Notes under the pieces: generated by a model
Told to the model about the DNA's origin: nothing
Database searches by the model: none
Seen by the model: the letters and a program-made list of their open reading frames with translations, nothing else
Translations under genes and position numbers: made by a program
Shown: positions 1,803 through 14,897 of the stretch, one piece after another
Layout of the letters: each line of letters opens with the position of its first letter
Numbering within the stretch: the first letter of the stretch is position 1
Assembly (NCBI GenBank): GCA_025352885.1
Contig: JANXRZ010000102.1
Coordinates: forward strand, 2,205-66,204
Direction: 5' to 3'
Source of the DNA: Pseudomonadota bacterium
GTDB lineage: Bacteria; Pseudomonadota; Gammaproteobacteria; Burkholderiales; SG8-39
Length of the DNA stretch: 64,000 bases

Positions 1803-3556
1803 CGAACGTGGACGTGTCGGCGCTGGACGGGCTCCAGACCGTCCTGCTGATCGAGGACAATCCGGGCGACGCCCGCCTGATCCGGGAAATGCTCCTCGAG
1901 GAACCGGCCTCCCCCTTCCACTTGGACTGCGCCGATCGCCTCACCCGCGGGCTCGAGTCGCTCGCGAAGGGCGATGTCGCGCTCGTGCTGCTCGACCTGT
2001 CGCTGCCGGACAGCCAGGGCCTGGAAACTTTCGCAAAAGTCTACGCGCACTCCCCGAAGATCCCGATCATCGTGCTCACCGGCAACGACGACGAGGCACT
2101 CGCGCTGTCCGCGGTCAAGAGCGGCGCGCAGGATTACCTGGTCAAAGGCAAGACCGACAAGCAGTTGCTCGTGCGCGCGATGCAGTATTCGATCGAGCGC
2201 AAACGCTACCAGGAAGAGCTCGAGCGCCAGGCCAACTACGACGGCCTCACCGGGCTGCCGAACCGGCACCTGCTGAACGACCGCCTCAAGCAGGCCGTGT
2301 TCGCGCAGCGCAACCCGCGCTCGATCTCGGTGGTGTTCATCGACCTCGACCATTTCAAGGTGATCAACGACAGCCTCGGGCACAACGCCGGCGACGAAGT
2401 CCTGCAGCATGTGGCCGAGAGGCTGCGCCTGGCGGTGCGTGACGGCGACACGGTCGCGCGTCTCGGCGGCGATGAATTCGTGCTGATCCTCGCGGACCAG
2501 ACCAAGGAAGACGTGATCTTCCGGGCAATGAACCGGATCATCGGCAAGGTGAGCGAGCCGCTGACCATCGGCAGCCGCGAGTTCAACATCACCTGCAGTG
2601 CCGGTATCAGTGTCCACCCGCAGGATGGCACGGACGTGGAGACGTTGCTCCAGAACGCCGATGCAGCGATGTACCGCGCCAAGGCTCACGGGCGCAACAA
2701 CTTCCAGTTCTACACTTCCGAGATGAACGCGCTCGCCAACGAGCGCCTGTCGCTCGAGCACAGCCTGCGCCGCGCGCTCGAGCGGAAGGAGTTGCTGCTC
2801 TACTATCAACCGCGCGTGAACCTCGCCACGGGCGTGATCGACGGGGTCGAGGCGCTCTTGCGCTGGCAGCATCCCGAGCACGGGCTCATCCTGCCGGGTC
2901 GGTTCATCGCGCTTGCGGAGGAAACCGGACTCATCGTGCCGATCGGCGAGTGGGTGTTGCGCACGGCGTGCTCGCAGAACCTTGCGTGGCAGAAAGCCGG
3001 GCTACCCGCAGTGGCGGTGTCGGTGAACCTTTCGGCGCGACAATTCTGGGGCGGGGGCTTGGCGCGCATGGTGGGCGCGGCGCTTACCGAGACCGGCAGC
3101 AACCCCGTTCACCTGGAGCTCGAACTGACTGAGAGCATGGTCATGCACGATGCCGAGACGGTGATTGCGACGCTGCGCGAACTGAAGGACCTCGGCGTGC
3201 AACTCTCAGTCGACGACTTCGGTACCGGATACTCAAGCCTGAGCTACCTGAAGCGGCTTCCGGTCGATGCCCTCAAGATCGACGGGGCATTCGTGCGTGA
3301 TATCGACGCCGGCGGCGACGGCGAGGGTGACAGCGGCATCCTGGCCAAGGCCATCATTTCACTCGGCCACAGCCTGCGCCTTAAGGTCGTGGCGGAAGGT
3401 GCGGAGACCGGCAAGCAGGTCGATTTCCTGCGCGAGCAGCGCTGCGACGAGGTGCAGGGCTATTACTTCGGCAGGCCCATGCCCGCCGAGGAATTTGCGA
3501 GCATGCTCAAGTCGGGCACCGGGATCCCACAGCCCGGCTGCCCGCCTTCGGATTAG
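1799..3556 (+). CDS. Response regulator receiver-GGDEF-EAL protein (c-di-GMP turnover)
   Basis: Receiver motifs LLIEDNPGD and LVLLDLSLPD. GGDEF motif RLGGDEFVL. EAL motifs EALLRW and DDFGTGYSSLSYL. The GTG start overlaps the upstream TGA (GTGA at 1799-1802). Confidence 0.92.
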   Translation: MTNVDVSALDGLQTVLLIEDNPGDARLIREMLLEEPASPFHLDCADRLTRGLESLAKGDVALVLLDLSLPDSQGLETFAKVYAHSPKIPIIVLTGNDDEALALSAVKSGAQDYLVKGKTDKQLLVRAMQYSIERKRYQEELERQANYDGLTGLPNRHLLNDRLKQAVFAQRNPRSISVVFIDLDHFKVINDSLGHNAGDEVLQHVAERLRLAVRDGDTVARLGGDEFVLILADQTKEDVIFRAMNRIIGKVSEPLTIGSREFNITCSAGISVHPQDGTDVETLLQNADAAMYRAKAHGRNNFQFYTSEMNALANERLSLEHSLRRALERKELLLYYQPRVNLATGVIDGVEALLRWQHPEHGLILPGRFIALAEETGLIVPIGEWVLRTACSQNLAWQKAGLPAVAVSVNLSARQFWGGGLARMVGAALTETGSNPVHLELELTESMVMHDAETVIATLRELKDLGVQLSVDDFGTGYSSLSYLKRLPVDALKIDGAFVRDIDAGGDGEGDSGILAKAIISLGHSLRLKVVAEGAETGKQVDFLREQRCDEVQGYYFGRPMPAEEFASMLKSGTGIPQPGCPPSD

Positions 3557-4272
3557 GCGAAGTCCGAGGACTGCACTCGCTTCACGCCGGCCTTGGTCAT
3601 GTCGGCCCAGGCCTTGGCGACCGAGCCGTTCAGGTCGATGCCACGCGAGGCGTCCTCGATGACCGAAGCCCTGAAGCCGGCCTTCCGCGCGTCGAGCGCC
3701 GTCCAAGCAACGCAGAAATCGGTCGCAAGTCCTGCAACGTACACTTCCTTGATGCCGCGCGCCTTGAGATACGCGGCGAGGCCCGTGCTGGTCTTGCCGT
3801 CGGCTTCGGTAAAGGCTGAGTAGCTGTCGGTGTCCTTGTGGAATCCTTTGCGGATCACGAGTTGCGCCTGCGGGATGTCGAGGTCCTTGTGCACGGCGGC
3901 GTCCTGCGAGCCCTGCACGCAGTGGTCCGGCCAGAGCACCTGCGTGCCGTAGCGCAGCTTGGTCGTCTCGAACGGCTTCTTGCCCGCGTGGCTGGAAGCG
4001 AACGATGCGTGGCCCGTCGTATGCCAGTCCTGCGTCACGACGACGTTCTCGAACCCCTTGGCAAGCTTGTTGATGATCGGCACGACCTGCTCGCCGCCCT
4101 TGACCGGCAGCGTACCGCCGGTGACGAAGCAGTTCTGCACATCGACCACGATGAGTGCGCTGTCCGCGCCCGGCTTGATCGGCGCAGCCCACGCTCGCTG
4201 GCCAAGGCCTGCCAGGGCAACGACGCCAAATGCGGCAACCGCTTTGAGACTTTCACGACGCTTGCTATCCAT
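3553..4272 (-). CDS. pncA: Nicotinamidase/pyrazinamidase (isochorismatase-like hydrolase) with a Tat-type signal peptide
   Basis: PncA-type motifs VVDVQNCF, QDWH, LWPDHCVQGS, DSYSAF and GLATDFCV. The N-terminus is KRRESLKAVAAFGVVALAGLGQRAWA/AP. Confidence 0.85.
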   Translation of the reverse strand: MDSKRRESLKAVAAFGVVALAGLGQRAWAAPIKPGADSALIVVDVQNCFVTGGTLPVKGGEQVVPIINKLAKGFENVVVTQDWHTTGHASFASSHAGKKPFETTKLRYGTQVLWPDHCVQGSQDAAVHKDLDIPQAQLVIRKGFHKDTDSYSAFTEADGKTSTGLAAYLKARGIKEVYVAGLATDFCVAWTALDARKAGFRASVIEDASRGIDLNGSVAKAWADMTKAGVKRVQSSDFA

Positions 4273-5788
4273 GGGGTTCTCCTTCGATGGGCCAGGGGTT
4301 GGGAGTGCGCCAGGCTTCGGCGCGAAACGACGCTGACCGCAGGACGTCCTGCAGTCGAACGACCTTGCCCATGTGCCCGCCCATCGCCGCGTACGCGGAC
4401 AATGGGAGGGTGAATTCGATCGGCAGCACGAGCGCCGGCGTCGGCACGTAGCCGAACGAGTTGTCCGGCATTGCGAGGATGTCGACCATGACCGTGATCC
4501 CGCCGCCCGGCCAGACGTAGACCGGCGCGCCGCCGCAGGTGACCCGCGTGATCAGGTCTTTCACCGAGCGCGTAAGGCGGACGGGATTTTCGGTCACGCC
4601 TGCCCGCAAGCTTCCGCCGGCACCGCCCATGAAGAGCACGCTGCACAAGGCTGGCTCGCAATTCTCTGCGATGCGATCGACTACGACCTTTACCGGATCA
4701 GGCATCGGCGCTTTATGTGGCTTGAGGTTCTCGTCGAGCACGAACCACTCTGCATCCTCGCCGGTGGTCGAAACCATGAGCAGGCGTAGGCCGGGCCACG
4801 CGGTCTTCGGGTCGATCCTGTCGATGATCGAAAGCGGGTCTTCAACATTGGTGCCGCCCCAGCCCGATCCCGGTTCGGCCACCTTGAAGTAGCGGCCCGG
4901 CGTCGACTTGCGGCCGCGCACGCGGATGCCCGCTGGCTTCATGTCGAGGAACCTGCCGGCCTGGTGCTCCGTCAGCACGCCGGTGATGTGGTCATCGACC
5001 ACGATCACTTCGTCGCAATGATCGAGCCATTGCTGCGCGAAGATGCCGATGGTCGCCGAGCCGCAGCCCACGCGCATGCGTTCCTCGCGCTCGCCGTTCA
5101 CGACCGGCGGCTTGCCGGCCTGCACGAGCACAGTGGAGCCGCCGTCGATCGAAACCTCGACGGCTTCCTTGTTGGAGAGCTTCAACATCGCGTCGCAGGT
5201 CGCGTTGCCTTCCTTCTTGCTGCCGCCGGTCAGGTGATGGACGCCGCCGAGCGCAAGCATCTGCGAGCCGTACTCGGCTGTAGTTACATGGCCGACCGCT
5301 TCGCCGCCCACGCGCACGGCGGCCTGCTCAGGTCCGAGCCAGCGGTCGGTATCGATCTTCAGCTTGAGGCCGCAGTAGCTGAAGATGCCTTCGGTCACCA
5401 CGGTCACCATGTCCACGCCGGACATCCTGGAAGACACGATGAAGGGCGCGGGCTTGTAGTCCGGGTACGTCGTGGTCGAGCCGATGCCGGTCACAAACGT
5501 GTTCTCAGCTGAAACGAGGCTGCCGTCCCAGGGCTTGCCGGGCTCGAAGAAGGGGACGAGCCCTTTACCGCTTTCGACCGAGCGCTGGAGGATCACGAGC
5601 GGATCGCTCCGGACCAGCTTGCCTTCAAGGTTTGCGTATCGGTCACACGCCCCGGACTGGCCCTTGCGGATGCGGCAGAGCACCGGACATGCGTCGCATC
5701 GAATGACCTCGCCCGAGGCCGGCTCGACGGCCGCGCCTGCGCTTTCGGGCGCGTCCTGCGGATCGACGCGGTCGAGGGGATGGCTCAT
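4265..5788 (-). CDS. 6-hydroxynicotinate reductase-like Fe-S protein (family assignment from memory, not searched)
   Basis: N-terminal Cys motif CDACPVLCRIRKGQSGACDRY. It is about 500 aa long. It sits between a nicotinamidase and a Mo-hydroxylase, as in known nicotinate clusters. Confidence 0.55.
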   Translation of the reverse strand: MSHPLDRVDPQDAPESAGAAVEPASGEVIRCDACPVLCRIRKGQSGACDRYANLEGKLVRSDPLVILQRSVESGKGLVPFFEPGKPWDGSLVSAENTFVTGIGSTTTYPDYKPAPFIVSSRMSGVDMVTVVTEGIFSYCGLKLKIDTDRWLGPEQAAVRVGGEAVGHVTTAEYGSQMLALGGVHHLTGGSKKEGNATCDAMLKLSNKEAVEVSIDGGSTVLVQAGKPPVVNGEREERMRVGCGSATIGIFAQQWLDHCDEVIVVDDHITGVLTEHQAGRFLDMKPAGIRVRGRKSTPGRYFKVAEPGSGWGGTNVEDPLSIIDRIDPKTAWPGLRLLMVSTTGEDAEWFVLDENLKPHKAPMPDPVKVVVDRIAENCEPALCSVLFMGGAGGSLRAGVTENPVRLTRSVKDLITRVTCGGAPVYVWPGGGITVMVDILAMPDNSFGYVPTPALVLPIEFTLPLSAYAAMGGHMGKVVRLQDVLRSASFRAEAWRTPNPWPIEGEPHG

Positions 5789-5833
5789 GACAGTGGCAGC
5801 AATTTGGCAGGAAACCCAGTATCCGCGCGGGCC

Positions 5834-8611
5834 TTAGCCATTTTTTGGCAGCAATGCCGCGCGCAGGCGGTGCGGCAGGACGGGCACTTGCCGCATGCGC
5901 ACGCCGGTGGCGTTTTCGATTGCGCCAAGAATTGCGGGCGCCGTGGGAATGAGCCCCGGCTCGCCGACGCCCTTGGCGCCGTACGGCCCGAGCGGTTCGG
6001 GGTTTTCGACGAGGATGCAGTCCATCTGCGGCACGTCGCCGATCGTGGGAATCAGGTAGTCGTGCAGGTTTTCGGTCCGGCCCGGCAGGTACTCTTCCAT
6101 GAGCGCAAGCCCGAGGCCCTGCACAGTGCCGCCTTGGATCTGGCCTTCGACCTGGATCGGGTTGATCGCGCGGCCCACGTCATGCGCAGCGACGATGCGC
6201 AGCACCTTCGTTGTGCCGAGCTCGAGATCGACTTCCACTTCGGCAATCTGCGCGGCGAACGCGTAGCTCGCATACGGCACGCCTTGTCCATCGGCGTCGG
6301 CCGGTGAAGTCGGCGGATCGAAGTAGCCCATGCCGATGAGGCCCTTGCGGATCGGGACGCGATGCGTGACGCCTTTCTTGCGGATCGCGATTTCGGCACC
6401 TTTGCCTCCTTTGCGCTCGAAGGAGAGCAGGTAGGCACGGTCGAGGTACTCGCCCTCGGGCGCATTCGCCATCGCGAAGACCTGCCTGCGAAGGTCGAGC
6501 GCCGCGAGCTCGGTTGCCTTGCCGGAGACGAAAGTCTGCCGCGAGGCGGACGTCTTGCCGGCGTCGGCGGTGAGGTCCGTGTCGCCGGTGATGCGCTCAA
6601 TGGTGTCCATGGGCACGCCCAGCGCATCGGCCGCGATCTGCGTGAGGATCGTGTTGGATCCCTGGCCGATGTCGACGGCGCCGCTGCACAGGGTCACCAC
6701 GCCCTTTCTCGAGACGCTCAGGTGCATGGTCGACGGGTTCGACAGCGACGTGTTGCCGATGCCGTACCACATGCAGCCGATGCCCACGCCGCGCTTGAGG
6801 TGCGTCGATCGCGCATTGAATGCCGCAATTTCTTTTTGCGCGCGCTGCCAGTGAGGCCGCAGTTCTTCGAGGCATTGCCCGAGCCCGGCTGAATGCTCGA
6901 GGATCTGGCCGGTGGCCGTTGCGTCGCCGGCCTTGAGCGCGTTCCTCAGACGGAACTCGAGTCGGTCGAGTCCGATTTTGTCGGCGAGTTCATCCATCAG
7001 CGCCTCATGCGCGATTGCGCCCTGCGGCACGCCGAACCCGCGGAAGGCGCCGGACGGATGGCAATGGGTGAAGAACCCCCGCCCCCGCGTGCGCACGTTC
7101 GGCACGCAATAAGGGCCGGTGGCGTGAATGGGCACCCGCGTCGCGACCGTCGGCCCCCAGCTTGCATAGGCGCCGGTGTCGAACTCGGCTTCGACTTCGC
7201 AGGCGACGAGGCGGCCTTCTGCATCACAGCCGAACTTTGCATGCACACGCGCCGGATGCCGCTTGGTCGTCGAGGCCATGCTTTCCGGCCGCGTGTAGAC
7301 GCATGCGACTTTGCGGCCCGTGAGCCAGGCGGCGATGCCGATGAGCGGTTGCACGGACATGTCGAGCTTGCCGCCGAATCCACCGCCGCAGGCCGTGGGG
7401 ACGATGCGCACCTGCGCGTTCTTCAGCTTCATGACGATCGCCATCTCGTCGCGGTCCATGTAGGGCGTCTGGGTCGTCACGTGGATCTCGATCCTGTCCT
7501 TGACGCGTTCTGCCCAGCCGGCCTCCGGTTCGATGTAAGCGTGCTCGACGAAGGCGGTTTCGAAATCGCCTTGCGCAACCGCCGCGCACGTTGCCAACGC
7601 TTCTGCGGCATTGCCTTTGCGCACGCCGCCGTCCTGCAGCAGGTTGCCCGGGCGGTCCGGCAGGACGAGCGCCGCGTTCGGCGCCATGGCGGCGTCCAGC
7701 CCCATGATCGGCGGCAGGACTTCGTAGGCGATCGGCAGCGTAGATGCATCGAACGCTTCTACTGCCACCCGGGACCCGACGAGCGCAACGACAGCTTCGC
7801 CACGAAAGCGCGTTTTGCCATCGGCCAGCACGGGCTGGTCCTTGATATGCGGGTAAATGCCGAATCCGTTGGAGGGGACATCTTTGGAGGTGAGGATGCG
7901 CACGAGGCCAGGGGTGCGCGCGACGACGGCGTCGAGGTCGCCGAGCGCGAACCTCGCATGATGATGAGGCGAGCGGATCACGCGCAGCCACAGCGCATCT
8001 TTAGGGATTGCATCGGCGCCGAACAGCTCCGTGCCGATCAATCTCGGCACGCCATCTACTTTGGGAACGCGTGCGCCCACTGCGCGTTCAGCTTTCGGCG
8101 GTCGGTCGAGCTTTGGGTGCGAAGCTACATCGAGCACTGCTTCGATAATCTTCTGGTAGCCGGTGCAGCGGCAGAGCACGCCTCCGAGCGCGTCTTTTAC
8201 TTCGTCCTCGCCCGGTTCGGGGTTGCGGGCAAGAAGGTCCGTGGCGGCCATGAGCATGCCCGGCGTGCAGATGCCGCATTGCGCCGCGCCATGTTTCTGG
8301 AATGCGGTTTGCAACGGCGAGAGGGCGTCGGCTTTCATGAGGCCTTCGACCGTGACCACTTCGCGTCCGGCAGCCTGGCCGAGCGCCGTCAGGCAGGCGC
8401 ACACCTGGTGACCGTCGAGCAGCACCGTGCAGGCGCCGCAGTCGCCGGCATTGCAGCCGATCTTGGTGCCGGTGAGATCCAGCTCGTCGCGAAGGACGTC
8501 GGCCAGGCGCGTTACCGGCGGCGCGGTCACCTTCACGGTTTTGCCGTTGACCTTCAGCGAAGTAGTCGCAGCTTTTTCCAGGAACTCCGCGTTGGGCTTG
8601 TTCATGCGCAC
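5834..8611 (-). CDS. Xanthine dehydrogenase-family hydroxylase, fused [2Fe-2S] and molybdopterin-binding subunits (candidate nicotinate dehydrogenase)
   Basis: N-terminal motifs GCNAGDCGACTV and CGICTPG...CRCTGY mark two 2Fe-2S sites. These are followed by a ~750-aa aldehyde oxidase/XDH Mo-binding region (GGGFGGK, GEPG). Confidence 0.85.
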   Translation of the reverse strand: MRMNKPNAEFLEKAATTSLKVNGKTVKVTAPPVTRLADVLRDELDLTGTKIGCNAGDCGACTVLLDGHQVCACLTALGQAAGREVVTVEGLMKADALSPLQTAFQKHGAAQCGICTPGMLMAATDLLARNPEPGEDEVKDALGGVLCRCTGYQKIIEAVLDVASHPKLDRPPKAERAVGARVPKVDGVPRLIGTELFGADAIPKDALWLRVIRSPHHHARFALGDLDAVVARTPGLVRILTSKDVPSNGFGIYPHIKDQPVLADGKTRFRGEAVVALVGSRVAVEAFDASTLPIAYEVLPPIMGLDAAMAPNAALVLPDRPGNLLQDGGVRKGNAAEALATCAAVAQGDFETAFVEHAYIEPEAGWAERVKDRIEIHVTTQTPYMDRDEMAIVMKLKNAQVRIVPTACGGGFGGKLDMSVQPLIGIAAWLTGRKVACVYTRPESMASTTKRHPARVHAKFGCDAEGRLVACEVEAEFDTGAYASWGPTVATRVPIHATGPYCVPNVRTRGRGFFTHCHPSGAFRGFGVPQGAIAHEALMDELADKIGLDRLEFRLRNALKAGDATATGQILEHSAGLGQCLEELRPHWQRAQKEIAAFNARSTHLKRGVGIGCMWYGIGNTSLSNPSTMHLSVSRKGVVTLCSGAVDIGQGSNTILTQIAADALGVPMDTIERITGDTDLTADAGKTSASRQTFVSGKATELAALDLRRQVFAMANAPEGEYLDRAYLLSFERKGGKGAEIAIRKKGVTHRVPIRKGLIGMGYFDPPTSPADADGQGVPYASYAFAAQIAEVEVDLELGTTKVLRIVAAHDVGRAINPIQVEGQIQGGTVQGLGLALMEEYLPGRTENLHDYLIPTIGDVPQMDCILVENPEPLGPYGAKGVGEPGLIPTAPAILGAIENATGVRMRQVPVLPHRLRAALLPKNG

Positions 8612-9450
8612 ACCGCCGCGAGCGTTCTCTTGACGACCGTCAGGGCGGCGTCGATCCGGTATGCGGCGCTTGCCCGGACGTCTTCGATGGGCTTGAGAAG
8701 CGCGAGGTGTTCAATGCGGGCGATCTCCGGCAGGCGCGCATCGAGGGGTTTTCCGGGAAGCGTGTCTTCGAGTGCCGTTAGCCGCAACGCGACAGGTGAA
8801 CACGAGCCGACCGCGATCCTGGCTTTGCGAACGATACCGGCCTCGTGCTCGATTACCACGCTCGCCATGGCAATCGATATGACGAGGTACTTGCGGGCGC
8901 CGAGCTTGAGGAAGTGGCTTTTCGCCTGGAACTGCGGCTTCGGGATGAGGATGGCGGTCATCAGTTCATCCGGCCGCCTCGCGGTGCTGCGCGGTCCGAG
9001 GATGAATTTATCGAGCGGCAGCACGCGCATCGCCTTGGCGCTCGAAAGCTCTACGGTGGCGTCGAGGCCAAGCAGAGCCGGCACGCCGTCCGCCGCAGGA
9101 GAAGCGTTGCAAAGATTGCCCGCGAGCGTGCCGCTGTTCTGGATCTGCACCCCGCCGATCTCGCGTGCCGCAAGTTTTAGCCCGTCGAACACTGGCGGCA
9201 GCTTTGCTTCGAGGACGTCCGTCCAGGTGGTGAGGGCGCCGATGCGCCAGTGGTCGGGCGCCGAGCAGATGCCGCGCAACTCGCCGATTGACGTGACGTC
9301 GAGGATGGCCTCGGTCAGCGGCTTGCCGACCCGCGCCGCATAGTGATCCGTTCCGCCGGCAAGAACGGTGAACGCTCCTCGCGCAAGGTGCTGGAGCGCT
9401 TCATCTGACTGAGTAGGGCGAAGGTAGCGGGGAGCCGAGGACGCAGCCAT
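8602..9450 (-). CDS. FAD-binding subunit of the xanthine dehydrogenase-family enzyme (CoxM/XdhB-like)
   Basis: Motifs LAGGTD and GTLAGNLCNASPAAD. It overlaps the downstream Mo-subunit start by 10 nt. Confidence 0.85.
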   Translation of the reverse strand: MAASSAPRYLRPTQSDEALQHLARGAFTVLAGGTDHYAARVGKPLTEAILDVTSIGELRGICSAPDHWRIGALTTWTDVLEAKLPPVFDGLKLAAREIGGVQIQNSGTLAGNLCNASPAADGVPALLGLDATVELSSAKAMRVLPLDKFILGPRSTARRPDELMTAILIPKPQFQAKSHFLKLGARKYLVISIAMASVVIEHEAGIVRKARIAVGSCSPVALRLTALEDTLPGKPLDARLPEIARIEHLALLKPIEDVRASAAYRIDAALTVVKRTLAAVCA

Positions 9451-9498
9451 GCGCCTATTTTGCCCCTTTTTGTCAGGTTTGAGCCTGGCCCCTTTTTG

Positions 9499-12400
9499 TC
9501 AGGCGGCTTTGCGTTCGGGGCGAAGCTTGAGCTCGCGAAGGCACCGGTCGATCCACTGGGCGGTGAGCTTTTCCTGCACGCCGTTCTGGCCGAGGCGCTG
9601 GTTGAGGGCGGCGAAATCGACCGAATCGAGCGGCTGGTCCTGGTTGAAGCAGGAGAAGACAAACGTCTGCTTGCCGGTTTTGGCGTCGGTATGCGGCTGG
9701 ATGCACTGGGCGCAGATCTCTTTCATCATGCATTGCATCGGGGAGTTGATCGACCCGATACCGACGTGCGAATCCTTAAGGTAGGGCTTCAGCGTCCCGT
9801 GCCGGGCGAGCGCCACCGCGCCCATCATGCGGTCCGACCCGATGGCGATGATGCGGTCGCAGTCCCGGTAGGCGATGACTTGATCACCGAGCGCGCCGCC
9901 TGCGTAGGCTTTCATCGCTTCCACGATATTGCCGACGAAGGTACGGTCCTGCCGCCTCGTTGGCTTGAATCCGGGAGCTTCGTCGCTGCACCACACCACG
10001 ACATCCGCAGCCTTCTCAATCTCCTCCACCTTGTATCGGTCGATCATCTTCTTGTAGCCGGCGAAGTAGAGCACCTTCGATCCGGCTGTGCGCAGGGCCT
10101 GGCCGATCGAGAACAGCACGGCATTGCCAAGGCCGCCGCCGACCAGCACGACTGTTTCATCCGACGGAATTTCGGTCGGCGTTCCCGTGGGCCCCATGAG
10201 GACGACGGGCTCGCCGGGCTTAAGGTAAGCGCACAGGTCCGCCGACCCGCCCATCTCGAGCACGATGGTGGAGAGCAGGCCCTTGCCCTTGTCGACCCAT
10301 GCGCCCGTGAGCGCCAGGCCCTCCATTGCGAGCGTCGTACCCGCAACGCGCGTTGCCAGCGATTCGAAATTCTGCAGGCGATAGAACTGGCCGGGCTTGA
10401 ACTTGCGGGCCGCGACCGGCGCACGCACCACGACTTCGACGATCGTCGGCGTGAGGCGCTTCACCTCGTGGACCACCGGACGCAGGTCCGTGTTGATCGA
10501 TGCGAGGAAGGCTGCATCGTCGAGTTTCGACGCCGCCGGGACTTTTGCGAGCACCCCGCTCACGACCGGATAGCCTTGCTTGGCGCCGCCCATCGCTTTC
10601 ACGACGTTGCCGAAGAACGAAGGGTGCAGGTCGCCGAAGAAGCTGATGAAGCGGCCATCGCCGTTGCGATGCAATAGGACGTCTTTGCGCTCGGGCTTGG
10701 AAATGGCGCGCTCCGGCTTGACCGTGTTCCCGTCTTCGTCACACGCCTCAAAATACTTGCCGTCCAGCTTGAAATTCGCCGCGTCCTCGCGTGCAAGCAC
10801 GGTATTCGGCTGGGTGCCGGCGGCGACGAGCAGTGAGCGGGCCGGCAACGCGGTTGATCCGGCTTCCGCCCATTTGCCGTCCGCGCCCATTGTCTGGACG
10901 GCGAACTGGACGGCCTTTGTATGCCCGAACTCGTCGATCTCGACGCGGATGGGGGAGAGGCCCTCGGCAAACGTGATGCCTTCCTCGAGTGCCTTCTCCA
11001 CCTCTTCGTGGTTCAGCGTGTAGGACGGGCTGTCGACGAGCCTGCGGCGATAAGCGATCGTCACGCCGCCCCAGGATTTAAGCAGCCCGACGTGCTCGGC
11101 AGGTGGCGCTTTACGCAAGGCGCGGCCATGCGCAATGAACTCGTCCGCAATGGCTTGTTCTTCGCGATTCCACGGGGCGCGCACGGCTTGCTCGCCTTTG
11201 CTTGCCACCAGGGAGTCGTAACGCGAAAGGAACTTCGCCACCTGGACGACGTAATAGGCAAGCGATTCGGTGGCCGTGTCGATTGCCGTCAGCCCGCCGC
11301 CGATCACGACGACCGGGAGGCGGATCTGCAGATTGGCGATCGAGTCGGCCTTCGCTGCACCCGTAAGTTGCAGCGCCATTAGGAAGTCGGACGCAGCGCG
11401 CACGCCTCGGGCAAAGCCGTTCGGGATCTCGAGCAGCGTTGGGCGGCCGGCCCCTGCAGCAAGCGCCACGTGATCGAATCCAAGCCCGCCAGTTTCACGC
11501 GATGCGAAGGCATCCTCTGCGGTGATGGTTCCGCCGAACCGCACGCCGCCGAACATCGAGAACTGCGAGCGCCGCTCGAGCAGCAGGCGGATGATCTTGA
11601 GGAAGTTCTTGTCCCAACGCACGGTGATGCCGTACTCGGCGACGCCGCCGAACCCCGCCATGACCCGATCGCTCAGGGATTCGTACAGTTCCTTCACTTC
11701 ACGAATCGCCTTGAAGGGCACGCGTCTGCCCACCGGATCGACGCCGGAATACTCCGCGGGCAGCGGCTCGATCTTGAGCCCGTCAATGGCGACGACCACA
11801 TGCCCGTCGTTCATCAGGTGATGCGAGAGCCCGAAACCGGCCGGGCCGAGCCCGACCACCAATACGCGCTTGCCGCTCGACCCTTTGGGGAAGGGCCGCG
11901 CAAGATGCAGCGGGTTCCAGCGCGTGAGGAGCGAATAGATCTCGAAGCCCCACGGCAGTTCCAGCACGTCCTTGAGCGTACGTGTCTCGGCTTGCGGGAT
12001 GTCGACCGGCGCCTGCTTCTGGTAGATGCAGGATTTCATGCAGTCGTTGCAGATGCGATGGCCCGTCGCCGCGACGATCGGGTTGTCGACGCAGATCATG
12101 GCCAGCGCGCCGAGAGGCTCGCCCCGCGCCTTGAGGAGATGGAACTCGGAGATTTTCTCCTCGAGCGGGCACCCGGCAAGCGTCACGCCGAACACGCTTT
12201 TCCTGTATCCCCCAGCCGGTGCCTTCTCTCGCAGCCCCTTGGAGCAGGAGTCCTTGCCCTGCTCATGGCACCAGATGCAATAGTTGGCCTGGTCGAGCGC
12301 GCCGTTGAGATCCGTCCCCGCATCCGTAAGACCAAATCCTTCCCGCAGGCGCAGGTGGTCGTCGGACAACGTGTGCTGCGGGAACCCTTTCGACTCGTCA

Positions 12401-13020
12401 GTGTGGACGGGTACGAGACGCATGAAGTCGAGCTTGGCCGGCACCTTGAAGAGCACCCCCGCGCGATGCTTCTTTTTTCCTTCCGGGCTCGTCGTGGCCC
12501 ACGCCGCGTAACGCGCGGCCAGCTCCAGCTTCGCCGCGTTCAGTGCCTCGTCCTTCTGCCACTCGGTCACATGCCACGCGAACGCGAGCTCGGTGAAAGG
12601 CTCCTCGAACAGGGTCGCCAGTTCTTTCTCGACGGTCTCGCCGTTTACCGCCGCGGCGTCCTCGGCTTTGACCTTATGCACTGCGCGCCGCTGCACGAAC
12701 AAGCGCTTGACCGAGTAAATCGGCGCCAGTTCGTGATGCTGGGCCGCGAGCGCTTGCAGCTCCGATTCGATCCCGAAAAGCTTGCCCAGGAAATCTTCCA
12801 GATGCGGCGCGAGCGCAATCAGGAGCTCCGATTCCCCTTTTTCTGCCAACGCGGAAGGATCGTGGCGCGCTGCGATCAGGCGCTCGACAAGCCCATCATC
12901 GGCTTCACGCATGAAGTCGAGGAAAGCAACATCGAGCCGGACGAGGGCGTCGCGATCGTAAAGGTCGGCGAAGGAGAGGCCGAAGCGCAGAGACGGGACG
13001 GGATCATTACTGGTTATCAA
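9499..13020 (-). CDS. Large fused oxidoreductase: unknown N-terminal domain, then a GltD/NfnB-like Fe-S + FAD/NAD(P) module, then a PyrK/NfnA-like FAD + [2Fe-2S] module
   Basis: Cys clusters CIWCHEQGKDSC, GCPLEEK and RICNDCMKSC. Dinucleotide fold motifs VLVVGLGPAGFG and VVVIGGGLTAID. C-terminal motifs FKPGQFYRLQ, VVLVGGGLGNA and MQCMMKEICAQC...FSC. TTG start at 13020. Confidence 0.75.
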   Translation of the reverse strand: MITSNDPVPSLRFGLSFADLYDRDALVRLDVAFLDFMREADDGLVERLIAARHDPSALAEKGESELLIALAPHLEDFLGKLFGIESELQALAAQHHELAPIYSVKRLFVQRRAVHKVKAEDAAAVNGETVEKELATLFEEPFTELAFAWHVTEWQKDEALNAAKLELAARYAAWATTSPEGKKKHRAGVLFKVPAKLDFMRLVPVHTDESKGFPQHTLSDDHLRLREGFGLTDAGTDLNGALDQANYCIWCHEQGKDSCSKGLREKAPAGGYRKSVFGVTLAGCPLEEKISEFHLLKARGEPLGALAMICVDNPIVAATGHRICNDCMKSCIYQKQAPVDIPQAETRTLKDVLELPWGFEIYSLLTRWNPLHLARPFPKGSSGKRVLVVGLGPAGFGLSHHLMNDGHVVVAIDGLKIEPLPAEYSGVDPVGRRVPFKAIREVKELYESLSDRVMAGFGGVAEYGITVRWDKNFLKIIRLLLERRSQFSMFGGVRFGGTITAEDAFASRETGGLGFDHVALAAGAGRPTLLEIPNGFARGVRAASDFLMALQLTGAAKADSIANLQIRLPVVVIGGGLTAIDTATESLAYYVVQVAKFLSRYDSLVASKGEQAVRAPWNREEQAIADEFIAHGRALRKAPPAEHVGLLKSWGGVTIAYRRRLVDSPSYTLNHEEVEKALEEGITFAEGLSPIRVEIDEFGHTKAVQFAVQTMGADGKWAEAGSTALPARSLLVAAGTQPNTVLAREDAANFKLDGKYFEACDEDGNTVKPERAISKPERKDVLLHRNGDGRFISFFGDLHPSFFGNVVKAMGGAKQGYPVVSGVLAKVPAASKLDDAAFLASINTDLRPVVHEVKRLTPTIVEVVVRAPVAARKFKPGQFYRLQNFESLATRVAGTTLAMEGLALTGAWVDKGKGLLSTIVLEMGGSADLCAYLKPGEPVVLMGPTGTPTEIPSDETVVLVGGGLGNAVLFSIGQALRTAGSKVLYFAGYKKMIDRYKVEEIEKAADVVVWCSDEAPGFKPTRRQDRTFVGNIVEAMKAYAGGALGDQVIAYRDCDRIIAIGSDRMMGAVALARHGTLKPYLKDSHVGIGSINSPMQCMMKEICAQCIQPHTDAKTGKQTFVFSCFNQDQPLDSVDFAALNQRLGQNGVQEKLTAQWIDRCLRELKLRPERKAA

Positions 13021-13031
13021 GGTCTGGGCAA

Positions 13032-13046
13032 TTTTTCAATGAAAAA
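13032..13046. promoter_or_regulatory. Perfect 7-1-7 inverted repeat TTTTTCA-A-TGAAAAA (candidate operator)
   Basis: Read directly from the sequence. It lies between the predicted -10 and the TTG start of the 1173-aa gene. Confidence 0.4.
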
Positions 13047-13052
13047 CATGAA

Positions 13053-13081
13053 ATTATCGCCGACCGGCGCCCTGTGCTCAA
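13053..13081 (-). promoter_or_regulatory. Putative sigma70 promoter for the 1173-aa oxidoreductase gene
   Basis: On the minus strand: -35 TTGAGC (13081-13076), a 17-nt spacer, and -10 GATAAT (13058-13053). Confidence 0.45.
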
Positions 13082-13097
13082 CAGGGATATTGGCGTC

Positions 13098-14051
13098 TCA
13101 ATCAGGGTGGGATATGCCGGCACGTTGAAGGTCGCGGATGAGTGCATTGTGCTCGTCGGCTGTGAGACCACGGACCGGCGGGCGCGTCGGTCCTGCGGCC
13201 AGGCCCATCTGTGCAGCCCATACCTTGAGCGCCGCATTGGGCGGACGGCCGGTCGTGCGCATCGGTTCCATTATCCAACGGTCGTAGATGGGCCGAAGCG
13301 GGGCGAGTTGCTCGAACCCCGCGCGACAGCCTTCTAGATCACCGCTTTGAAACTTCGCGTAGTACCCGGCGATCGGTCGATGGCCGGCGCGCTGGTAGAG
13401 GTAAGGCTCGGGATCCGCGAAGAGCAGCGTTTGCCGATGCTCGGTCAGGTTCTCGAACCAGTGCTTCTCCATGGGATCGCTGACCACGACTTTTGCGCCG
13501 CAGGCCCGGCGGACCTCGACGCGATCCTTGTCATCTCCCGCCGCCTTGATGCCGCGGACATTCGGGATCTCGCAGAGCCGCGCCAGCAACGGCGGATTCA
13601 GCAGGTAGCCCGAGGCTGGCGTGTTGAACAGGATGATCTCGATGTCTGACGCCGAGCACACGGTCTCGAAGTAATCGAGCAAGGCTTCATCGGTACGCGG
13701 GCCGACCGCCGGGTTCATCAGCGTCGCGTAATGGCAGCCCGAGGCCGCGGCGTGACGAATCAAGTCGATCGTCTCGGTCGGGGAGTGATGGGTGCAGTTC
13801 GGCGCAAGTCCCAGCCGGCCTCCGGCAGCCGAAGCGAGCGTTTCGACGACCAATTTTCTCTCAGGCAGCGTGAGCGACCAGTACTCGCCCATGAGACCGC
13901 AAAAGAACACGCCTTTCAATTGGAGGGCCTGGGTGTAGATGTCGGCGTTCTTCCGCAGCCCCTCGGTATCGAGCGCCCCGTCCGGCCGGAAAGGCGTATG
14001 AATGGCGGCCCAGATGCCGCCCTCTTCAATCCTGAATGCGTGCTTGCCCAT
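13098..14051 (-). CDS. Dihydrodipicolinate synthase (DapA)/N-acetylneuraminate lyase-family protein
   Basis: DapA-family-like sequence from MGKHAFRIEEGGIWAAIHTPF onward. The ATG at 14051 has GGAG 8 nt upstream. The longer track ORF (to 14435) overlaps the divergent SDR gene. Confidence 0.75.
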   Translation of the reverse strand: MGKHAFRIEEGGIWAAIHTPFRPDGALDTEGLRKNADIYTQALQLKGVFFCGLMGEYWSLTLPERKLVVETLASAAGGRLGLAPNCTHHSPTETIDLIRHAAASGCHYATLMNPAVGPRTDEALLDYFETVCSASDIEIILFNTPASGYLLNPPLLARLCEIPNVRGIKAAGDDKDRVEVRRACGAKVVVSDPMEKHWFENLTEHRQTLLFADPEPYLYQRAGHRPIAGYYAKFQSGDLEGCRAGFEQLAPLRPIYDRWIMEPMRTTGRPPNAALKVWAAQMGLAAGPTRPPVRGLTADEHNALIRDLQRAGISHPD

Positions 14052-14135
14052 CTTCTCCAATCCCAGAACGTGATGCCGGTTGCTGGCCGGGGGCGGAGCC
14101 TTTAGCATCTCTCCCTCGTCAAAAAGGATGATGAC

Positions 14136-14897
14136 ATGCAACTCAAGGACAGCGTATTCCTCATTACCGGCGGGGCATCGGGCCTGGGGGCCGCCAGCGC
14201 GCGCATGGCTGCGGAAAACGGCGCAAAGGTTGTCATCGCGGACCTGCAGGACGGCTCCGCCTATGCAAAGGAGCTTGGGGCCAACGCCCGCTACATCAAG
14301 ACCAACGTGACGGCGGAAGCCGATGGCAAGGCCGCGGTGGAACTGGCGCTCAAGGAATTCGGCGGACTGAACGTGTTGATCAATTGTGCGGGCATTGCGA
14401 TCGGCGAGAAGACCATCGGCAAGAACGGCCCGCATGCACTCGATTCGTTCTCCCGCGTCATCACGGTCAACCTGATCGGCACGTTCAACATGATCCGCCT
14501 CGCAGCCGAGGCAATGGCAAAGGGCAAGCCGAACGCATCAGGGGAGCGCGGCGTAATCGTGAATACCGCTTCGGTTGCCGCCTACGACGGCCAAATCGGG
14601 CAGGCGGCCTATTCGGCCTCCAAAGGCGGCGTGGTCGGCATGACCCTGCCGATTGCACGCGACCTTTCTCGCGACGGCATTCGCGTCTGCACGATTGCGC
14701 CCGGCATCTTCGAGACGCCGATGCTGCTCGGCATGCCGAAGGAAGTGCAGGACGCGCTGGGCAAGATGGTGCCATTCCCTTCACGCCTTGGCCGTGCCCC
14801 GGAATATGCCGCGTTGGCAAGGCACATCGTCGAGAACGAAATGCTCAACGGCGAGACCATCCGGCTCGACGGCGCAATCCGCATGGCGCCGAAATAA
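14136..14897 (+). CDS. Short-chain dehydrogenase, 3-hydroxyacyl-CoA dehydrogenase type II-like
   Basis: Motifs [13 protein letters not shown], and the S...YSASK catalytic motif. Overall resemblance to the HSD17B10/FadB2 type. Confidence 0.85.

Follow-up and report, generated by a model that had tools for sequence, protein, structure and literature searches.

The closest described relatives of the protein considered here are the NfnAB (NfnSL) enzymes of strict anaerobes, heterodimers in which two subunits together carry two [4Fe-4S] clusters held by seven cysteines and one glutamate, two flavin/dinucleotide modules, a YRR motif and one [2Fe-2S] cluster with an aspartate as its first ligand. 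Xfn/NfnII of the archaeon P. furiosus is likewise built from two subunits. Naturally fused Nfn homologues have also been described: those of 'Pattern C', from Actinobacteria and from Alpha- and Gammaproteobacteria, were called uncharacterised in a review that names only one aerobe as harbouring an Nfn homologue (Liang, Huang and Wang 2019, PMC6405883). We describe here a single-chain protein encoded by an open reading frame (ORF) at positions 9499..13020 on the minus strand of a 64,000-nucleotide stretch of a Burkholderiales genome (assembly GCA_025352885.1, contig JANXRZ010000102.1), which is referred to below as the window. The ORF comprises 1173 uninterrupted codons, and the reading frame, the domain matches and a structural model divide its product (P0001) into an RP005_N domain, an NfnB-like part and an NfnA/PyrK-like part. 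Its strand was a point missing from an earlier sequence-only reading of this DNA. In our view, held with a probability of about 60%, the protein is a resident orthologue of a widespread single-chain iron-sulfur flavoprotein, Nfn-like and probably of general role, and its link to the neighbouring nicotinate genes is secondary.

Sequence, profile and fold comparisons each place both halves of the protein closest to Nfn. The best single-sequence and profile matches in the PDB are the Nfn large subunits 5vj7_A, 5jca_L and 4ylf_B, with profile E-values of 5e-31 to 1e-25. The next profile matches are the Nfn small subunits 5jca_S (E 8e-23) and 4ylf_A (E 3e-21), with positions 825-1131 of the protein aligned to chain residues 8-275. 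For both halves, Nfn subunits outscore GltD and PyrK. An AlphaFold2 model built from 59 diverse full-length homologues reached a predicted local distance difference test (pLDDT) score of 94.5 and a predicted TM-score (pTM) of 0.94. When this model was compared with the PDB by Foldseek, its large-subunit half gave target TM-scores of 0.79 (5jfc_L), 0.83 (5vj7_A) and 0.78 (4ylf_B), and its small-subunit half gave 0.90 (5jca_S) and 0.85 (4ylf_A), with DPD and GltD ranking below Nfn. The highest fold similarity of the large half is thus to Xfn/NfnII of P. furiosus (5VJ7; TM 0.83, root-mean-square deviation 4.5), which also yields the best sequence E-value. The agreement between sequence, profile and AlphaFold2/Foldseek matches confirms the layout of an NfnB/GltD-like module followed by an NfnA/PyrK-like module, as the sequence-only reading had proposed, with Nfn and Xfn as the nearest structures.

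The modules are arranged in large-then-small (B-A) order within the single ORF, all on the minus strand. An Fe-S domain of NfnB/GltD type (residues ~216-370; 11911..12375) is predicted to bind two [4Fe-4S] clusters. It is followed by the NfnB-like FAD and NADPH domains (residues ~371-830; 10531..11910), recognizable by GLGPAG at 390-395, GGGLTAID at 574-581, YRR at 657-659 and GD at 796-797. Relative to NfnB, this part of the chain contains two insertions, at ~415-455 and at 586-650. A linker of ~15 residues leads to the NfnA/PyrK-like FAD/NAD module (residues ~846-1140; 9601..10485). The motifs on which the fusion had originally been proposed were all located: CIWCHEQGKDSC at 248-259, GCPLEEK at 283-289, ICVDN at 309-313 and RICNDCMKSC at 322-331 in the Fe-S domain; the dinucleotide-fold motifs VLVVGLGPAGFG at 386-397 and VVVIGGGLTAID at 570-581; and FKPGQFYRL at 874-882, VVLVGGGLGNA at 957-967, CMMKEICAQC at 1097-1106 and FSC at 1122-1124 toward the C-terminus.

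Family models give a compatible picture. The NCBIfam model NF005128 (PRK06567), named 'putative bifunctional glutamate synthase subunit beta/2-polyprenylphenol hydroxylase', matches the full length of the protein including its N-terminal domain, with 780 bits (E 3.6e-234) spread over three stretches, the best of which covers residues 11-715. PRK06222 and PyrK models match residues 852-1070. A local Pfam scan returned only Pyr_redox_2 and a weak Fer4_20 hit, from a copy of Pfam that does not hold PF27156; both PF27156 and PF07992 are recorded for an identical database protein and for all its listed homologues.

Conservation of the cofactor ligands was read across the 59 homologues, which are 35-66% identical to the query. 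Seven cysteines of the Fe-S domain (C248, C251, C259, C284, C324, C327 and C331) and one glutamate, E345, are invariant, whereas C310 varies. The profile comparison aligns E345 with the Glu of 'KLER' in 5jca_L, by count E126 of P. furiosus NfnL, whose role as a ligand of the proximal [4Fe-4S] cluster has been studied by experiment (PMC9503767). Judged from this alignment, E345 is probably the eighth ligand of the two predicted clusters. A ligand set for two [4Fe-4S] clusters had been proposed on the basis of eight cysteines; the set itself stands, but only seven of the cysteines belong to it, and E345 is a likelier eighth member than C310. The NADPH site is similarly well marked: GGGLTAID (574-581) and AYRRR (656-660) align with the equivalent motifs of 5vj7_A, Y657 is invariant and R658 is conserved in at least 90% of the homologues.

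In the C-terminal module, C1097, C1103, C1106 and C1124 are all invariant, in line with the four-cysteine [2Fe-2S] motif that had been recognized there. The first of these residues, C1097 (MQCMMKEIC), stands where NfnS/NfnA read 'DGTGMC'. Because this first ligand is an invariant Cys, the predicted [2Fe-2S] site is all-Cys and PyrK-like, not Asp-ligated as in Nfn.

The N-terminal domain (residues 1-~215; 12376..13020, minus strand) sets the protein further apart from Nfn. LRLREGFGLTD at residues 223-233 aligns with 'RRRNFEEVALG', the N-terminus of T. maritima NfnB, and the NfnB-like part starts at about residue 218. Since residues 223-233 already align with the NfnB N-terminus, the extension is ~215 aa long, shorter than the ~240 aa initially assigned to it. 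It is predicted with high confidence to be all-helical, its helices lying between residues 18 and 184, and a separate AlphaFold2 model of the domain has a pLDDT of 87. None of its Cys or His residues is conserved among the 59 homologues. Searches of the PDB found no relative of the domain by sequence or profile, and Foldseek returned no match at E <= 0.001, the best probability being 0.06. The earlier statement that this domain matches nothing therefore holds for PDB folds but not for domain catalogues, where it appears as PF27156.1 (RP005_N), recorded for P0002, a protein 100% identical to that of the window, and for all 120 listed homologues. The RP005 in this name presumably goes back to a locus tag of Rickettsia prowazekii, and a search of the literature turned up no paper on it. 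The helical domain is probably a scaffold or a docking surface.

Compared to NfnAB, the protein thus combines in one polypeptide what is divided there between two subunits, and it adds the ~215-aa helical domain and the two insertions in the NfnB-like part. Neither the archaeal Xfn/NfnII nor NfnAB has such an N-terminal domain. The hosts differ as well, being aerobic or facultative Proteobacteria here and strict anaerobes in the case of Nfn. With the Pattern C proteins it shares the natural fusion, the C-terminal position of the a-FAD/NAD/[2Fe-2S] part (B-A order) and a length exceeding that of clostridial fused Nfn (PMC6405883). Pattern C proteins are ~200 aa above the ~750-aa clostridial fusion, while the 1173-aa protein, with its RP005_N domain, is ~400 aa above it (PMC6405883). 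The Pattern C examples may belong to the same family.

The family to which the protein belongs is large. A word-indexed search scored at least 8000 homologues, the best 120 of which are 70-100% identical over the full length and come mostly from Burkholderiales, Betaproteobacteria and some Alphaproteobacteria. Annotations among these 120 go no further than 'FAD-dependent oxidoreductase' or 'GltD-like/NAD(P)H-flavin reductase'. An exhaustive search of representatives matched 4460 clusters at 50% identity, 1259 of them at E <= 1e-30, and more than 100 of the matched clusters align over the full length, down to 35% identity. Two distant members (43% and 49% identical) lie among housekeeping genes, and one of these adjoins a gene for a TLC ATP/ADP translocase, a hallmark of obligate intracellular bacteria. 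The 1173-aa protein is a further copy of a known, catalogued architecture in a very common proteobacterial family. With thousands of members, this family is among the larger conserved redox proteins of Proteobacteria, and it is retained even in a genome carrying the ATP/ADP translocase.

The position of the gene on the chromosome provides a second line of evidence. Homologues 63-74% identical to the window protein were collected in a metagenome scan, and at 80 loci the neighbouring genes were inspected, nicotinate genes being counted at >=50% identity (individual loci are denoted below by L numbers). Nicotinate genes accompany the flavoprotein gene at five of these loci (L085, L086, L109, L111 and L125) and are missing from the other 75. 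A conserved SDR gene lies near the homologue at 17 of the 80. In the window this gene is found at 14136..14897 on the plus strand; it is a conserved divergent neighbour in the betaproteobacterial group, with or without nicotinate genes. In a tree of 87 homologues, the window protein falls inside a well-supported clade whose 16 members all have the SDR gene as a neighbour, and of these some have nicotinate genes and others do not.

Individual loci illustrate the same variability around a fixed position. An 84%-identical homologue (L083) shares the window's gene order of SDR, HI0933, YcaO, atc and PHP genes and has a complete nicotinate cluster. An 87%-identical one (L084) differs upstream but continues downstream as the window does, with flavoprotein, XDH, Hnr, nicotinamidase and GGDEF-EAL genes. 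A 75%-identical homologue (L001) occupies the same chromosomal position, where SDR and flavoprotein genes are followed directly by an ABC transporter, with neither XDH nor Hnr. An alphaproteobacterial homologue (L002) lies between MarR and MBOAT genes. The window gene is a resident orthologue in a conserved chromosomal position. A specialised or dedicated paralogue was also considered and rejected, as the window copy nests with the orthologues at the same position and shares their flanking genes.

The protein is most likely a general NAD(P)H-linked, ferredoxin-coupled oxidoreductase. If the Nfn scheme applies, hydride from NADPH would enter at the NfnB-like FAD. One electron path would then lead to an outside carrier of low potential, most likely ferredoxin, by way of the proximal [4Fe-4S] cluster with its Glu ligand and the distal one, and the other through the [2Fe-2S] cluster and the second FAD to NAD(H). 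Coupling of the two paths would amount to bifurcation; uncoupled, they would make the protein a transhydrogenase or a ferredoxin reductase. The all-Cys [2Fe-2S] site, the insertions and the N-terminal domain may alter these energetics. The general role would probably be to keep the ferredoxin pool connected with the NADH and NADPH pools. The upstream neighbour in one lineage fits a ferredoxin-linked enzyme: at eight loci (L107, L109, L110, L114-L117 and L120), all from one clade, a gene for a 107-aa 7Fe-type (FdxA-like) ferredoxin precedes the flavoprotein gene on the same strand at a distance of 10-50 nt. At L084, a 105-aa DUF971/GBBH-like_N gene (3925-4242) stands directly upstream of the 87%-identical homologue. 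Neither a 7Fe ferredoxin gene nor a DUF971/GBBH-like_N gene is present in the window.

In the window, the nicotinate module lies directly downstream and is probably co-transcribed, so the protein may also feed the 6-hydroxynicotinate reductase (Hnr)-like enzyme encoded there. This would be a secondary, lineage-level arrangement and not the purpose of the family. Should the proteins be true Nfn-type enzymes, aerobes would commonly perform flavin-based bifurcation or, failing that, transhydrogenation of the Nfn type. The putative operon shared with Hnr offers a concrete candidate for a physiological acceptor of the family, and it bears on the source of low-potential electrons for the reductive nicotinate pathway in aerobes. 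The finding matters more for the family at large, and for the acceptor suggested by the nicotinate operon, than for the window copy itself.

Several observations weigh against our reading. The nicotinate adjacency within 10 kb at 5 of 80 loci is far above chance, the rough expectation for a random single-copy locus in a genome of several megabases being well under 1%, and it requires at least five changes on the tree (in the window clade, in L086, in L085, in L109 and in L111 with L125); together, these figures argue against a purely accidental link. The ferredoxin neighbour is limited to a single clade. With Cys in place of Asp at the [2Fe-2S] cluster, the high-potential branch may have a different potential. 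At 780 bits, the match does not reach the equivalog cut-off of NF005128 (1072 bits), which makes the protein a relative of the seed group of that model and no equivalog. Finally, it is from homology that the substrates, ferredoxin as the partner and any bifurcation are predicted.

A bolder form of the proposal would have a single-chain, oxygen-tolerant Nfn run 'backwards' in aerobic Proteobacteria, obligate intracellular ones included, passing electrons from NADPH to NAD+ and to a 7Fe-type ferredoxin as their main low-potential source. A nicotinate operon would have recruited it in some Burkholderiales, and there it would drive the ferredoxin-dependent reduction of 6-hydroxynicotinate. We regard this extended scenario as doubtful.

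The sequence-only reading had suggested that the fusion is a dedicated source of low-potential electrons for the Hnr-like reductase, and the local gene arrangement explains the attraction of this idea. Directly after the ORF, at a distance of 48 nt and on the same strand, comes a gene for an XDH-family FAD subunit (8602..9450), followed by a fused [2Fe-2S] and molybdopterin subunit of the XDH family, presumed to be nicotinate dehydrogenase (5834..8611). The Hnr-like protein of the 6-hydroxynicotinate reductase family (4265..5788; PMC3511419), for which there is no Pfam or NCBIfam model, is encoded next, so that its gene indeed lies two genes from the ORF, downstream and on the same strand. A nicotinamidase/pyrazinamidase gene (3553..4272) is the last of this co-directional block on the minus strand. 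The gap to the XDH FAD gene is similarly short, at 17-47 nt, in L083, L084, L086 and L004, and a tight arrangement is also seen in L003. A promoter-like site is found only upstream of the flavoprotein gene and a consensus scan revealed no minus-strand terminator-like site between it and the XDH FAD gene; co-transcription of the 1173-aa gene with the XDH, Hnr-like and nicotinamidase genes is plausible from this layout. A bifurcating enzyme of Nfn type that is dedicated to supplying the Hnr-like reductase from NADPH, directly or via ferredoxin, with the low-potential electrons required for ring reduction in an aerobe would account for this arrangement and for the presence of nicotinate genes near homologues in at least five places of the tree.

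The survey of Hnr loci points in a different direction. One genome per species was scanned, which gave 590 Hnr relatives, and the best 80 loci were searched by tblastn over up to 10 kb on each side. The XDH Mo/Fe-S subunit is found near Hnr at 76 of these loci, an AbpE-like gene of ~290 aa (PF27030) at 74, and the XDH FAD subunit at 60, many contigs being cut. A homologue of the 1173-aa flavoprotein is found at only three (L003, L004 and L005), which are the closest relatives of the window, and is missing within 10 kb at the other 77. Co-occurrence with Hnr, as seen from either gene, is thus the exception (3 of 80 Hnr loci, 5 of 80 flavoprotein loci), and the flavoprotein is no conserved component of Hnr clusters. 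In Alphaproteobacteria, where Hnr clusters are commonest, the adjacency is absent, and the alphaproteobacterial assembly JAHCJQ01 carries the flavoprotein gene (L002) and Hnr (L007) on different contigs. The module in the window also lacks the AbpE-like gene that usually stands beside Hnr. Together with the same-position orthologue at L001 that has no nicotinate genes, and with family members in intracellular-type genomes and housekeeping contexts, these counts speak against a dedicated supply. Since the family is very common and the nicotinate adjacency occurs only in some betaproteobacterial lineages, the protein cannot be regarded as a partner dedicated to the ring reductase, and we consider the proposal of such a supply unlikely.

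A dedicated reductase may not be needed in the first place. Hnr of E. barkeri reportedly uses reduced ferredoxin. The typical Hnr clusters of the 80 loci have no conserved gene for a ferredoxin or a reductase that would point to the electron donor; this could be counted in favour of an added supply. However, the route from nicotinate through oxidation to 6-hydroxynicotinate and reduction to tetrahydro-oxonicotinate is, by our own reckoning, redox-neutral, and the XDH, almost always adjacent, could itself supply Hnr. If XDH normally feeds Hnr, as it may, most clusters would for that reason have no need of a further reductase. A literature search found no paper linking Nfn with 6-hydroxynicotinate. 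In our reading, the link between the flavoprotein and Hnr is real as a gene neighbourhood in one bacterial group, but indirect and dispensable.

The typical Hnr cluster further includes an AA_synth (PF06684) gene, a Liv-type ABC transporter and either hydantoinase A/B or an amidohydrolase. Across the Hnr loci (L003-L082), hydantoinase/oxoprolinase A and B genes were seen at 24 and 18 of 80, and an amidohydrolase at 21 of 80. In many Proteobacteria, the ring of tetrahydro-oxonicotinate may be opened not by enamidase but by an ATP-dependent lactam hydrolase resembling oxoprolinase.

The protein could also be a simple, non-bifurcating NAD(P)H reductase that serves a partner enzyme without ferredoxin, in the way that GltD serves GltB or PyrK serves PyrD. 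GltD and domains I-III of DPD share the Fe-S/FAD/NADPH module with it, PyrK shares the FAD/NAD/[2Fe-2S] module, and all three are significant relatives in structure and sequence. The all-Cys [2Fe-2S] site is PyrK-like and not Nfn-like, and the helical N-terminal domain could dock a partner. These matches are consistently weaker than those to Nfn subunits, which come first for both halves, and the invariant Glu ligand is of Nfn type. Two complete NAD(P)(H) sites per chain suit a transhydrogenase and exceed what a simple reductase requires. A catalytic partner of GltB, FMN-barrel or PyrD type is neither fused to the protein nor conserved adjacent to it, and a simple reductase therefore appears improbable.

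A last alternative starts from the Liv-type ABC transporter. A periplasmic binding protein 68-80% identical to that of Hnr clusters is encoded near the homologue at 21 of the 80 flavoprotein loci, in both co-directional and divergent arrangements. The transporter at such loci, which include L001, L087, L089, L091, L092, L102, L106, L107 and L116, consists of the binding protein, a fused permease of ~627 aa and two ATPases, occurs in two orientations and is orthologous to that of the Hnr clusters. Binding proteins that adjoin a homologue without nicotinate genes fall, in a tree, within the clade of those from Hnr clusters. At L091, TctC, CoA ligase and enoyl-CoA hydratase genes separate the flavoprotein gene from the transporter. 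The flavoprotein and nicotinate genes apparently neighbour the same kind of ABC transporter, and this would be the reason why nicotinate adjacency recurs. We read the flavoprotein gene and the transporter as old neighbours in Burkholderiales, between which nicotinate genes come and go. That the transporter, or the compound it imports (nicotinate or a related N-heterocycle or acid), is the real partner of the flavoprotein, which would act in the metabolism of this compound, with the nicotinate genes sharing the transporter, is the least probable of the explanations considered, even with nothing between the two at L001. The adjacency does not extend beyond part of the 63-87% identity group and may be inherited gene order, and the unrelated cargo at L091 resembles a variable insertion spot. 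No such transporter lies near the distant members or the alphaproteobacterial L002, and apart from the electron-transfer modules no catalytic domain that would bind a substrate can be recognised in the protein.

The gene call itself is secure along most of its length. Its GC content at third codon positions is 80%, and together with thousands of full-length homologues this identifies ORF 9499-13020 as a real gene. A chance ORF or a frame-fusion artefact is ruled out by homologues that are colinear along the full length. The start codon is a TTG at 13020, with no obvious Shine-Dalgarno sequence, and conservation among homologues begins at about residue 9-11; as homologues align only from there, the true start may differ by a few codons.

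Upstream of the ORF, a gap of 77 nt contains a sigma-70-like match, TTGAGC-17-GATAAT (13053..13081, minus strand), which is a consensus match only. It is the sole such match in 3400-14300, where 1.2 would be expected from shuffled sequence, and both the promoter and the terminator scans are consensus scans that carry no statistical weight. Within 13032-13081, the promoter-like site is followed by an AT-rich palindrome, TTTTTCAATGAAAAA, which could be an operator.

The nicotinate module of the window is truncated relative to those in L003, L004 and L083, and no AbpE-like, transporter, AA_synth, hydantoinase or amidohydrolase gene was found in the 64 kb. It ends with the nicotinamidase gene and then a GGDEF-EAL gene, exactly as in L084. 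On the other side of the ORF, a DapA-family gene (13098..14051, minus strand) is inserted between it and the conserved SDR gene. Among the loci examined, this insertion was seen in three only, namely the window, L004 (1712-2647) and L085 (8886-9812); at one of 80 Hnr loci, a DapA-family gene is no part of typical Hnr clusters. The sequence of the 1173-aa protein itself turns up only in DNA metagenome runs, from rock and sediment.

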